Translations under genes and position numbers: made by a program
The notes under the pieces: model-generated
Databases searched by the model: none
Seen by the model: the letters and a program-made list of their open reading frames with translations, nothing else
Told to the model about the DNA's origin: nothing
Shown here: piece by piece, positions 58,251-60,453 of the stretch
Layout of the letters: each line of letters begins with the position of its first letter
Position numbering within the stretch: the stretch's first letter is position 1
Assembly: GCA_017474765.1 (NCBI GenBank)
Contig: JAFVGW010000032.1
Span: forward strand, 66,989-130,988
Reading direction: 5' to 3'
DNA: 64,000 nucleotides
Origin: Salinivirgaceae bacterium
Lineage (GTDB): Bacteria; Bacteroidota; Bacteroidia; Bacteroidales; SZUA-534

Positions 58251-58440
58251 AAAAAAAGCGTCCCAAACGGAACGGCGTGCGATGCGGGTTGACAGATTAA
58301 AATCCGCAGGCAGACCATAAGAAATGGTCTCCTGCGGATTTAAAATTAACTGAATATACTATGTTTAATGGTTACTATCTTTATCTATCGTTTCTTTCAT
58401 TACCTTTCTAAGAATCTAAAACATCTAAAACAAAGAAAGG
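58251..58440 (-). repeat. ~190-nt direct repeat, copy 1 (3' end of immunity gene plus downstream non-coding hairpin)
   Basis: Near-identical to 58873-59068 apart from a handful of substitutions and a 4-nt indel. Confidence 0.85.
58300..58341 (-). terminator. long compound hairpin downstream of orphan immunity gene 1 (terminator or recombination site)
   Basis: AAATCCGCAGG-C-AGACCAT-AAGAA-ATGGTCT-CCTGCGGATTT. Confidence 0.45.
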
Positions 58441-58792
58441 CGAACAGAACAGTTAGGACATAATGAAATACTAAAATAAGTATTGATAACACTTTGGGTA
58501 TTTTGTCACTTATTGGTATTATTAGCTCCAAATTGTTAATATATCTTTTACCCATCCGGTTTCTTATTTTATGACCTAAAAAAACAGATATGGCAATTAT
58601 TGTTAATACGAAAGGTAAGAATCTCATCGTTATTCTTTTGGTTATAATTGGAGATAAATAACTTATGATTGAAAAAATATTCAAACTCCAGAAGAACTCT
58701 AAAACGGAAAGACTCTTTATTATTCCTTTTTGTCCATCTTTTCTAACAATAGAAAAATATGCCGCTACCCATAAATCAATAATCTTTTTCAT
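58400..58792 (-). CDS. orphan immunity protein paralog 1 (3-TM, 130 aa)
   Basis: MKKIIDLWVAAYFSI... is paralogous to 59026..59418, 59570..59968 and 60052..60453. The N-terminal extension of ORF 58400..58936 runs through the non-coding repeat and was trimmed. Confidence 0.75.
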   Translation of the reverse strand: MKKIIDLWVAAYFSIVRKDGQKGIIKSLSVLEFFWSLNIFSIISYLSPIITKRITMRFLPFVLTIIAISVFLGHKIRNRMGKRYINNLELIIPISDKIPKVLSILILVFHYVLTVLFAFLCFRCFRFLER

Positions 58793-58872
58793 CATCATAA
58801 GCCTTTTTGGCCCCCAATGGTAGTTTGTGTAACAAATATATGAGTTATTCAGAAAATAATTTGCTATAGCAC

Positions 58873-59068
58873 AAAAAAAGCCGTTCCAAACGGAACAGCG
58901 TGCGATGCGGGTTGACAGATTAAAATCCGCAGGCAAACCATAAGAAATGGTTCCTGCGGATTTAAAATTAACTGAATATACTATGTTTAATGGTTACTAT
59001 CTTTATCTATCTATCGTTTCTTTCATTACCTTTCTAAGAATCTAAAACATCTAAAACAAAGAAAGAAA
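58873..59068 (-). repeat. ~190-nt direct repeat, copy 2
   Basis: See 58251-58440. Period is ~622-626 nt. Confidence 0.85.
58923..58963 (-). terminator. long compound hairpin downstream of orphan immunity gene 2
   Basis: AAATCCGCAGG-CA-AACCAT-AAGAA-ATGGTT-CCTGCGGATTT. The inner-stem G:C pair of copy 1 is replaced by A:T. Confidence 0.45.
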
Positions 59069-59418
59069 AGCAGAATAGTTAGCACATAATGAACTATCAA
59101 AATAAGTATTGACAACGTTTTTGGTATTTTGTCACTTATTGGTATTATTTGTTCCCAATTGTCAAAATACATTTTATCCAACCAATTTCTTATTTTACTC
59201 CCCATAAAAATTGATAAGGCAAGTATTGTTAAAGCAACTGGTAAAAAACTCATAGTTATTCGTTTTGTCAGGATTTGTGACAGATAACTAATAATTGAGA
59301 AAATATTAAAAGTCCAAAGGAACTGTAGAATATAAAGACCGCTTATCATTCCTTTTTGCTCATATTTCCTAAAAATAGAAAAATATGCCGCTACCCATAA
59401 ATCAATTATCTTTTTCAT
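59026..59418 (-). CDS. orphan immunity protein paralog 2 (3-TM, 130 aa)
   Basis: MKKIIDLWVAAYFSIFRK...CFRCFRFLER. By eye about two-thirds identical to paralog 1. Confidence 0.8.
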   Translation of the reverse strand: MKKIIDLWVAAYFSIFRKYEQKGMISGLYILQFLWTFNIFSIISYLSQILTKRITMSFLPVALTILALSIFMGSKIRNWLDKMYFDNWEQIIPISDKIPKTLSILILIVHYVLTILLFFLCFRCFRFLER

Positions 59419-59482
59419 CGCTGTATAATAGTTTATGTCCCCAATTATCTGATGCTTTATCTATTGTAACTCCTAAACCCAT
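59402..59482 (-). pseudogene. relic of a toxin 3' end (26 codons) overlapping orphan immunity gene 2 by 17 nt
   Basis: Translates MGLGVTIDKASDNWGHKLLYSDEKDN*, compared with the intact toxin tail GLGTKIDKATDNWGQKLLYNDEKDY*. Confidence 0.75.
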
Positions 59483-59520
59483 TTATACTCTGATTGTATG
59501 AATTATTACATCAAAATTTG

Positions 59521-59558
59521 ACACCCTGACAATTGTAGAATTTAGATTGTCAGGGTGT
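59521..59558 (-). terminator. hairpin terminator after orphan immunity gene 3
   Basis: Perfect 13-bp stem ACACCCTGACAAT-N12-ATTGTCAGGGTGT, 11 nt past the stop. The minus strand continues CAAATTTTG. Confidence 0.6.
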
Positions 59559-59569
59559 TAAACTTTTTG

Positions 59570-59968
59570 TTATGGTCTAAGACATAATAGAAATTTCATA
59601 CAATAGAAAACAAGAAAAATGGTTGTGAAATAATGTACGACAACCACACAAATCATTATTGTTTTAGGAATATTTTCAAATGTGGATTTGATATATTCAT
59701 ACTTACTTAAATAAAAAGATTCTAGTGCTTTTTTTATAGAAAAAGCTATTACAACAAACGAGCAAAAAATAAAAGTTCCATATATATATATGTTTTCAAT
59801 TTTAACATATTTACCAATAATTGGAAGAAAACAGCATAATAAGGAAAAGCCATTGATAGCTAAAGTAATATTCAAAAACCACAAACCAAATTCTATACGT
59901 TTTTCTTTATACCGTTGTGGGGTAAAAAGTGTGTATGCTGCAACTAAAAAATCAATTATTTTCTTCAT
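59570..59968 (-). CDS. orphan immunity protein paralog 3 (3-TM, 132 aa)
   Basis: MKKIIDFLVAAYTLF.... More divergent, and closest to the cognate paralog 4. Confidence 0.75.
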   Translation of the reverse strand: MKKIIDFLVAAYTLFTPQRYKEKRIEFGLWFLNITLAINGFSLLCCFLPIIGKYVKIENIYIYGTFIFCSFVVIAFSIKKALESFYLSKYEYIKSTFENIPKTIMICVVVVHYFTTIFLVFYCMKFLLCLRP

Positions 59969-60032
59969 CTCTATAGAAAACATTTTTGGCTCCCCAATGA
60001 TTTGATGCTTTGTCTATTTCTGTGTCAAATTT
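59952..60032 (-). pseudogene. relic of a toxin 3' end overlapping orphan immunity gene 3 by 17 nt
   Basis: Translates KFDTEIDKASNHWGAKNVFYRDEENN*, with the same register relative to the immunity ATG as the intact toxin. Confidence 0.7.
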
Positions 60033-60051
60033 TTACTTATGGTCTAAGACA

Positions 60052-60453
60052 TTAGGCAAATTTCATACAATAAATCATTAAAAATGCAGAACCTAAATAG
60101 TGAACAACAACAAATAGTATTAACAAAAATCTCGGAAATTTTTCACTAAAAAATTTAATATACTCATACTGCTGTGTTGAATAAATATTCTTAAGCTTAT
60201 GCTTAATGCCAAAACAGATTAGTACTGTAATAATGAATATTATAACGCCAAATGTATAAGGAGAAAAATGCTTTAGGCATTCTCCTACTAAAGGTATGGA
60301 ATAAACAATCGGCAAAAGACAGTAAAACAACGACAATCCATTAAATCCCAATGGAATAGACAAAACAGTTAACCCTCTTTCCAATCGGTCTTCACATTTT
60401 TTGTAAACTGTACTGAAATATGCCGCCACAAAAAAATCAATAATCTTTTTCAT
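60052..60453 (-). CDS. cognate immunity protein (3-TM, 133 aa)
   Basis: MKKIIDFFVAAYFS.... Its start overlaps the Rhs toxin stop by 17 nt. Three hydrophobic helices. Confidence 0.8.
   Translation of the reverse strand: MKKIIDFFVAAYFSTVYKKCEDRLERGLTVLSIPLGFNGLSLFYCLLPIVYSIPLVGECLKHFSPYTFGVIIFIITVLICFGIKHKLKNIYSTQQYEYIKFFSEKFPRFLLILFVVVHYLGSAFLMIYCMKFA

Follow-up and report, generated by a model that had tools for sequence, protein, structure and literature searches.

Arrays of orphan immunity genes are known from Vibrio cholerae's type VI secretion system (T6SS), where they arise by sequential effector displacement: incoming modules displace the old effector and keep its immunity gene, the 3' end of the old effector may be pushed back, and the advantage suggested is a defence against kin in which the old effector persists (Kirchberger et al. 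2017, PMC5361080). Orphan modules of C-terminal toxin (CT) and immunity gene are also described for Rhs and CdiA loci and ascribed to C-terminal displacement (Poole et al. 2011, PMC3150448; Jackson et al. 2009, cited in PMC5361080), and the immunity genes of such modules are believed to be expressed and to protect (PMC3150448). Membrane-active toxins include the two-helix Tox-WTIP tips of RHS proteins (Zhang et al. 2012, PMC3482391) and Ssp6 (PMC6889166). Here we examine a 64,000-nucleotide stretch of a Salinivirgaceae bacterium genome (GCA_017474765.1, contig JAFVGW010000032.1, positions 66,989 to 130,988), hereafter the window, in which an Rhs polymorphic toxin gene is followed on the minus strand by four paralogous genes, imm1 to imm4, for small predicted membrane proteins. 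We consider it likely that this locus is a variable Rhs 3' end bearing an orphan immunity array that was built by toxin-tip replacement and horizontal cassette exchange.

The window is 100% identical to the ENA metagenome contig ERZ28019012:k141_618860, which is locus L006 among the loci compared, with window base 64000 corresponding to L006 base 1930. The comparison genomes are metagenome contigs or metagenome-assembled genomes (MAGs) throughout, and all results come from sequence data. The Rhs/YD-repeat toxin gene (60437..64000, minus strand) runs past the window end, with no stop codon up to base 64000, and its open reading frame (ORF) matches RHS_repeat, RHS, Rhs_assc_core and YD_repeat (PF05593, E = 3.7e-27; PF03527 and TIGR03696 at residues 815-894). 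The core region (Rhs_assc_core) extends to residue ~894, about base 61217, where it closes with ...PLKYVDPTGY, and so carries the DPxG(Y/L) signature (...NNPLKYVDPTGY). Behind this core end lies a linker or pre-toxin segment (60861..61216, minus strand) that is common to strains with different tips, being near-identical in the window, L018 and L022 and present also in the orphan protein P0002 despite a different (Gly-zipper) tip. Core and linker are shared by the window, L018, L022, L003 and L012, and the difference lies in the last ~145 residues. Aligned toxin ends fall into three zones: the conserved linker, a variable hydrophobic region of ~100 residues surrounding an invariant NTHT(I/F)VD motif, and a conserved tail, IDKA(T/S)DNWGxK(L/V)(L/I)Y..E.D(Y/N)-stop. 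The polymorphic tip of the window toxin (60437..60860, minus strand) has this motif and tail together with a strong hydrophobic stretch of ~35 residues (~196-230) and a weaker one (165-186), both rich in Gly and Ala.

Toxin and first immunity gene overlap by 17 nucleotides (ATGAAAAAGATTATTGA, 60437..60453, minus strand), in which the ORF translations read ...DEKDY-stop in the toxin frame and MKKIID in the immunity frame. The same overlap occurs in five distinct intact toxins (the window, L003, L012/L017, L018-21 and L022-25), and its register recurs ahead of imm2 and imm3, as the original prediction had proposed. All four genes lie on the minus strand, start with ATG, are intact and encode proteins with the N-terminus MKKIID(F/L)xVAAY; ORF checking and pairwise alignment bore out the proposed paralogy and positions. 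The toxin-overlapping, presumably cognate imm1 (60052..60453, 133 residues) is of type I, and the three orphans are imm2 (59570..59968, 132 residues, type II, with an alternative in-frame ATG at 59983), imm3 (59026..59418, 130 residues) and imm4 (58400..58792, 130 residues), the last two both of type III. Pairwise identity is 44% between imm1 and imm2, 72% between imm3 and imm4 and 30-33% for the remaining pairs.

Three hydrophobic helices per protein had been proposed, and hydropathy of all four proteins agrees, each having three hydrophobic segments (Kyte-Doolittle 19-residue maxima 1.5-2.9), as does an AlphaFold2 model of imm1 built from 15 family sequences, which reaches a predicted local distance difference test (pLDDT) score of 90.5 and contains long helices at 23-51, 65-90 and 108-132 plus short amphipathic helices. 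The immunity protein is accordingly modelled as a predicted integral membrane protein with three hydrophobic transmembrane (TM) helices of 25-29 residues. By the Nei-Gojobori method, the ratio of non-synonymous to synonymous substitutions (dN/dS) is 0.12-0.49 in every informative pair, orphan-orphan comparisons included, and the copies are all intact; as judged by these ratios, the orphan immunity genes are under purifying selection. Between the window and L001, imm3 has zero non-synonymous changes at a dS of 0.026; imm3 and imm4 stand at a dS of 0.53 and the other paralogue pairs exceed 1.

A 16-mer at 60037-60052, encoding CLRP and a stop, had been read as a relic of the C-terminus of paralog 3. 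It proves to be the tail of imm1 itself, cut off by a premature stop: the 16-mer is identical to the end of imm2 and aligns without gaps as the imm1 C-terminus (MKFA-stop-CLRP-stop against MKFLLCLRP-stop), and a comparable LxLxP / RFLER tail is found in 13 of the 14 other aligned family members. Because of this ungapped alignment and the retention of the tail in relatives, we place the stop six codons early, the former last codons being 60037-60051.

Upstream of the orphans lie short stumps of toxin 3' ends. Relic 2 (KFDTEIDKASNHWGAKNVFYR.., 59969..60032, or 59952-60032 with the overlap) and relic 3 (MGLGVTIDKASDNWGHKLLYS.., 59419..59482, or 59402-59482 with the overlap), both on the minus strand, align locally to the toxin 3' end with scores of 46 and 69, against null means of 17-18 and maxima of 32-35; none of 2,000 dinucleotide shuffles reached the observed values, although the 17 nucleotides of immunity gene had been removed from each spacer beforehand to avoid circularity. 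The resemblance of these two relics to the toxin tail, with the translations first given for them, therefore stands against shuffled sequence. Over its right half, relic 3 is identical to the intact L022 toxin tail (DNWGHKLLYSDEKDN-stop), and longer stumps occur elsewhere (~43 codons in L013, ~34 codons in L015). The shortest stump, relic 4 (58793..58819, minus strand), starts at the W-G codons (CATTGGGG...) and is brought into the imm4 frame by a 1-nucleotide indel. It is weak in the window: against the window toxin tail it is not significant (403 of 2,000 shuffles score as well), and its similarity to relic 2 is slight (CATTGGGG-GCCAAAAA, 16/17; 11 of 3,000 shuffles). We accept it because L001 and L027 have an identical left junction followed by the clean tails HWGQKLLYSDEKDY-stop and HWGHKLIYGDEKDF-stop, evidence that comes from those other genomes and not from the window. 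The trace first suspected ahead of imm4 thus holds through these junctions and fails against the resident toxin.

The same chromosomal site can be followed in related strains and species through its conserved downstream flank, which comprises a 208-residue gene, a 77-residue gene, a tetratricopeptide repeat (TPR) protein of ~1050 residues, a 307-residue gene and an acyltransferase. Where the window has the Rhs gene and four immunity genes, L008/L009, with a 99.8% identical flank, have three: the imm4 cassette is absent and the junction carries the imm4-type downstream element. L018/L019 (flank 96%) have an Rhs gene whose tip differs only in the last ~145 residues, an imm2-like gene, P0009, overlapping that toxin by 17 nucleotides, and a type I gene. 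L022-25 (flank 90%) have a gene with a type IX secretion system (T9SS) sorting domain, an intact 1909-residue Rhs protein, P0017, an imm2 orthologue (98.5% amino acid identity) and a type I gene, and L012/L017 (flank ~75%) have the toxin P0001 followed by a type II and a type I gene. In L001/L016 (flank 73-81%) there is no Rhs gene, and rplI is followed by three cassettes of stump plus gene; two of those in L001 belong to the immunity family, one being 99.5% identical in nucleotides to imm3, and the other carries an unrelated 177-residue membrane protein. Replacement of the toxin tip and gain and loss of cassettes are thus observed directly at this site as strain polymorphism, with different tips and cassette numbers at one position.

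Arrays also turn up in unrelated contexts, namely with an Rhs gene and four genes in L003, after a classical orphan Rhs-CT in L013, in the distant lineage L015, in L027, and, as an immunity-only island beside rnpA, in L028. Genes near-identical across species (L022_137 and L001_137, 98.5% amino acid identity; L018_140 and L012_139, 95%) between loci whose flanks are 73-81% identical point to recent horizontal spread and selection for retention. Imm2 is 98.5% identical in amino acids to the L022 orphan and 86% identical to P0009 (L018:1306-1704), which overlaps the toxin in the conspecific L018. Kin in a toxin-adjacent position elsewhere are found for types I and II but, in the data searched, not for type III. 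The proposal of a stack left by toxin replacement is upheld by the strain polymorphism and by this cognate position of the imm2 orthologue; it needs amending in that the relics are mosaics and not simple fossils formed in place. Tips with a short second hydrophobic helix (...CPPAALG; the window and L003) pair with type I genes (FS..YKK), and tips whose helix is 5 residues longer (L018, L022, L012) pair with type II genes (TLF.PQR), a covariation that matches the pattern predicted for cognate pairing, in a small sample.

By inspection, imm2 and P0009 are near-identical over the C-terminal ~82 residues and ~60% identical over the first ~50, which hold the N-terminal helix and TM1. This pattern suggests recombination inside the gene, with TM1 possibly carrying immunity specificity.

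When the toxin frame ahead of each family member is translated and the spacers are aligned, three spacer modules emerge, which form three independent families. Module A has a hairpin and MGLG(V/T).IDKA... and keeps 26 codons of tail; module B has a different hairpin and IIDKA..., with ~21 codons; module C combines hairpin, terminator, -7 box and HWG..., with ~13 codons. Type II genes precede module A in the window, L018 and L022, and the type I gene P0014 precedes it in L027; behind it comes a type III gene in the window, a type I gene in L018 and in L022, and a type II gene in L027. The imm4 orthologue P0006 in L027 sits behind a full module-B stump. Each module is near-identical up to mid-stump (IDKA|SDNWG, or CATTGGGG) and divergent beyond. 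Because the spacer alignments are shared on the left and diverge on the right, we read each stump as a composite whose left half comes with the upstream cassette and whose right half belongs to the downstream cassette. Such mosaic junctions suggest that crossovers have fallen repeatedly inside the conserved block of toxin tail and immunity start, by a recombination pathway that we infer; the junction in L008/L009 fits a crossover between the two module C repeats.

We further offer, as a tentative and rather doubtful extension, that the dual-coding junction (the last ~20 toxin codons and first ~12 immunity codons, ~60-80 nucleotides) is maintained as a recombinase-free cassette-exchange site. 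If so, immunity cassettes could be added, deleted and swapped across strains and species in an integron-like way by plain homologous recombination, each bringing a terminator and sometimes also a promoter of its own; immunity-only islands such as L001 and L028 could assemble without ever hosting toxins; and the stumps would be a working part of a defence-gene shuffling system, not debris. The hairpins themselves were considered as integron attC-like sites and set aside, as each has a terminator-like T-run and no integrase lies nearby.

The spacers also bear on how the array might be expressed. Between imm1 and imm2 the 83-nucleotide spacer has no RNA structure (z = 0.28). After imm2, module A forms a strong terminator-like hairpin (59513..59566, minus strand; -25.4 kcal/mol, z = -7.4; inverted repeat I6) that is conserved in L018, L022 and L027. 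Imm3 and imm4 are each trailed by an element of ~150 nucleotides, in which a long hairpin is joined to a canonical stem and T-run terminator; the hairpin and intrinsic-terminator-like stem of module C copy 1 follow imm3 (58880..58962, minus strand; -39 kcal/mol, z = -6.0), and those of copy 2 (58259..58340, minus strand), 94-96% identical to copy 1, follow imm4 and end the A/T-rich block. TAnnTTTG is the Bacteroidetes -7 promoter motif. A perfect match, TATATTTG (58833..58840, minus strand), lies 41 nucleotides upstream of the imm4 ATG, beyond the imm3 terminator; it is one of two minus-strand matches in 58150-61300, and the -7 box module recurs in conserved form ahead of two L001 immunity genes and of one in L027. 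A scan for sigma-70 promoters, a model unsuited to Bacteroidetes, found 14 where shuffles gave 15.3. On this arrangement, imm1 and imm2 would be transcribed together with the Rhs gene and imm4 would be served by its own promoter; expression of imm3 is uncertain.

As had been proposed, the block is A/T-rich: G+C is 0.27-0.31 across 58250-60500 and 0.40-0.57 in the flanks. The fall begins at ~61250, at the end of the Rhs core, where G+C drops from ~0.53 to ~0.41 before reaching 0.27-0.31. At the other side, the boundary of the variable region is formed by a lysine-rich 77-residue ORF (57201-57434, plus strand) and a 208-residue predicted secreted or lipoprotein-like gene without a family match (57523-58149, minus strand); this boundary is common to all related strains, with the 208-residue gene missing in L012.

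The mechanism that we propose starts from an Rhs polymorphic toxin system of the SpvB / FG-GAP propeller / YD-shell type in rumen Salinivirgaceae-like Bacteroidales. Pore-forming colicins have membrane immunity proteins. By analogy with such systems, and from its composition, the tip, which is small and does not look enzymatic, is probably a membrane-inserting hairpin that would most probably kill through insertion into the cytoplasmic membrane, pore formation or depolarisation. The ~130-residue proteins would then be three-helix inner-membrane immunity proteins that neutralise the matching toxin hairpin inside the membrane, with imm1 as the cognate and the 17-nucleotide overlap probably serving translational coupling. 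Imm2, imm3 and imm4 would each once have been the 3' end of a toxin-immunity operon, made up of toxin tail, immunity gene and terminator hairpin. The block of ~60-80 nucleotides that encodes IDKAxDNWGxKLLYxDEKD-stop and MKKIID.VAAY would supply the homology for joining, adding, deleting and swapping cassettes, and every cassette would keep a mosaic toxin stump because crossovers use this block. Orphans would be retained as protection against toxin variants at the same locus in co-resident strains, so that the array probably broadens the immunity repertoire. For such protection, purifying selection is the one indirect line of evidence.

Several points weigh against this account. Toxicity, membrane targeting and protection are all things that we infer, and the term pore-forming draws on composition and analogy, the tip having no database match and the AlphaFold2 model of the toxin C-terminal region (12-sequence alignment) being unusable at a pLDDT of 38. 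The association between tail subtype and immunity subtype is loose; in the data searched, no intact toxin carries the 'AKNVFYRDE' tail of relic 2 and none is paired with a type III gene such as imm3 or imm4. A strong hairpin precedes imm3, for which no promoter could be recognised, and imm4 was left uncalled by the gene caller of the source assembly. The Rhs gene appears 5'-truncated, and with it the role of imm1 in self-protection may be gone. Chimeric assembly of repeated cassettes is also conceivable for metagenome contigs and MAGs; several independent samples share the same arrangements.

Tandem duplication in situ, in which one immunity gene and the last codons of the toxin were copied into four paralogues that diverged in place without replacement or transfer, would explain a good deal simply: the four genes go back to one ancestor, copying from inside the toxin tail would carry a stump along, and imm3 and imm4 form a 626-bp direct repeat whose downstream elements are 94-96% identical. 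Yet paralogues within the array are only 30-44% identical while orthologues elsewhere reach 86-100%, and those orthologues lie in species with flanks at 73-81%, in other contexts (L003, L027, L028) and, in L018, overlapping the toxin at another tip. The non-coding stumps are far better kept than neutral decay would allow at the divergence of the genes (dS 0.53 for imm3/imm4 and >1 for the others), and the imm4 orthologue of L027 stands behind a different spacer module. We regard duplication in situ as very unlikely overall; it is largely refuted for imm1, imm2 and imm3 and is left as a possible remote origin of imm3/imm4 only. The good preservation of the stumps could instead reflect a present function, as leader ORFs or A-rich leaders for translational coupling or start access, or as parts of promoters. 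Relic 3 is indeed a complete, toxin-like ATG ORF of 26 codons that ends 17 nucleotides into imm3, its ATG form is conserved in L018 and L022, the 'AKNVFYRDE' tail variant provides imm2 with an in-frame upstream ATG (MFSIEMKK), stumps are still 80-90% similar to live tails, and the organism is posited to use Shine-Dalgarno sequences weakly. Relic 2, however, lacks a toxin-frame start codon, and a frameshift affects relic 4; the stumps have four truncation points, at ~26, 21 and 13 codons here and at 43 in L013; and recent derivation from live toxins, with shared ancestry of spacer modules, accounts for the conservation. We hold a present function to be unlikely.

It is also conceivable that the four genes encode not immunity proteins but other small membrane proteins, whether helpers of export or maturation or membrane toxins, that merely co-occur with the Rhs gene. 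The family is unnamed in the databases searched: the toxin tip and the four immunity proteins gave nothing meaningful against Pfam, NCBIfam and PADLOC, sequence-profile searches of the PDB with the tip and the immunity family returned chance matches only (E > 0.4), and Foldseek of the confident imm1 model against the PDB found no structural match (best E 4.4). Against this, the position, overlap and polymorphism of the genes obey the toxin-immunity rule: wherever a toxin of this tip family is intact, a copy overlaps it, tip subtype and copies vary together, the family is restricted to this toxin family's loci, and copies persist in toxin-free arrays (L001, L028), which fits defence rather than a helper role. 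We judge a role outside immunity very unlikely and retain the reading of an orphan immunity array assembled by tip replacement and cassette exchange.

The family is narrowly distributed. Among 5.8 billion proteins, searches detected 15 clusters at 90% identity, and among 1.84 billion representatives, 35 clusters at 50% identity; these 35 are restricted to loci of the same toxin family and seemingly all come from Bacteroidales of the rumen or gut. For the toxin tip, about a dozen relatives were detected. A scan of GTDB genomes gave matches in two species only, represented by two MAGs, the uncultured Bacteroidales RUG13583 and the sheep-rumen Salinivirgaceae RGIG6642, and a scan of JGI metagenomes with the immunity profile yielded no confirmed locus.

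The resident toxin, whose tail had been called intact, is not demonstrably intact as a whole. Its tail is present, and on L006 the Rhs ORF (L006:523-5493, 1656 residues) lacks ~295 N-terminal residues of its 1909-1912-residue orthologues, its residue 13 aligning with residue 308 of the 1909-residue L022 protein. In the TcdB/TcaC-like class a complete N-terminus consists of signal peptide, SpvB domain and propeller (PMC3482391); the L006 ORF has neither signal peptide nor SpvB domain. It directly follows a fragment of an insertion sequence (IS), the C-terminal 114 residues of an IS256-family transposase (L006:2-346, at the contig end; NF048019, E = 3e-32). Complete N-termini are present in L003, L022 and L026, and the loss is a trait of this strain, not of the toxin family. 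The resident toxin gene is probably disrupted, and the strain may, if the assembly is right, retain four immunity genes behind a disabled toxin gene.

Directly upstream of intact Rhs genes, and always there (L003:278-757, L022:1-277, L026:1-286), stands a conserved gene of ~158 residues whose product matches the T9SS type A sorting domain (TIGR04183, E = 5e-15) and, weakly, a YD repeat; it may hint at a surface route for Bacteroidales Rhs proteins. The tip also occurs on standalone proteins of ~215-220 residues (P0003, P0019-P0024) that start M(T/S)FNDWIDSQVQTGNAS... and have a conserved, distinct N-terminal segment that is not Rhs core. In L015, standalone tip proteins form tandem arrangements with immunity genes and stumps; the tip thus exists on at least one other carrier or as free-standing orphans. 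A second membrane-protein family of ~177-179 residues (MEKIIWWWN...), unrelated to the imm family, occurs at L001:9047-9721 after an 'AKNVFYR'-type toxin stump and at L013:3934-4473 after the orphan Rhs-CT P0002 with its Gly-zipper tail; it is probably a further immunity family for a sister toxin tip. At the other end of the window, a single ORF of 4986 residues (139-15099, minus strand) gives a single Pfam signal, below threshold, for a T9SS C-terminal sorting domain at its very C-terminus and may encode a giant T9SS cargo or adhesin.

With this locus the catalogue of polymorphic toxins gains two unnamed families, one of toxin tips and one of three-helix immunity proteins. The locus also offers a legible natural series at one site, with the toxin present, tip-swapped, IS-truncated or absent and two to four immunity cassettes of the family, which makes questions of immunity-array growth and orphan protection testable in an uncultured rumen lineage. 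The crossover points mapped inside a short toxin tail amount to a concrete and checkable mechanism of cassette exchange.

Set against the described systems, the locus resembles the V. cholerae T6SS arrays in having a lead effector-immunity pair followed by orphans that are related to cognate genes elsewhere and horizontally acquired. The carrier here is an SpvB/propeller-type Rhs protein in Bacteroidales and not a T6SS auxiliary cluster, and a single immunity family faces a single tip family, each cassette retaining a short conserved toxin tail that holds the crossovers. With the Rhs and CdiA systems it shares a polymorphic C-terminal toxin behind a conserved core motif, an immunity gene directly downstream, displaced modules stacked 3' of the main gene and common to strains or species, and frequent IS elements. 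Classical Rhs/CdiA orphans, however, keep a whole toxin domain and a piece of the core (the VENN / PxxxxDPxGL region) and can be reloaded onto the main gene, as in the orphan Rhs-CT P0002 of the related locus L013, whereas here only the last 13-26 toxin codons remain, leaving immunity-only orphans from which no toxin can be regenerated. The retained homology accordingly lies at the 3' end of the toxin and not at its 5' end.

Like the systems named rAID (recombinase-associated acquired interbacterial defence; 10.1101/471110; PMC12247911), the array consists of short, co-oriented and horizontally mobile orphan immunity genes in Bacteroidales that diverge from their cognates and are separated by conserved intergenic motifs. 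Unlike them, it occupies a fixed chromosomal site, either joined to an Rhs toxin gene or in its place, it comprises one cassette family aimed at an Rhs tip that is not of T6SS type, and its intergenic motifs are toxin stumps and hairpins. No Phage_integrase-type gene appeared in the Pfam tables at the syntenic loci or among the window ORFs scanned (52947-63898), and we reject rAID membership, there being no tyrosine recombinase by the array, only the IS256 transposase fragment upstream. With pore-forming colicins, Tox-WTIP and Ssp6, the pair would share, on prediction, a hydrophobic helical-hairpin toxin and, encoded directly behind it, a small polytopic immunity protein of the inner membrane, with specificity expected from helix-helix contacts in the membrane; it shows no similarity to them in sequence or fold, its motifs being NTHT(I/F)VD and IDKAxDNWG, not RxxR / W-TIP. 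We place the locus among the orphan immunity arrays that effector displacement produces, a kind already described, and nothing here overturns current understanding.

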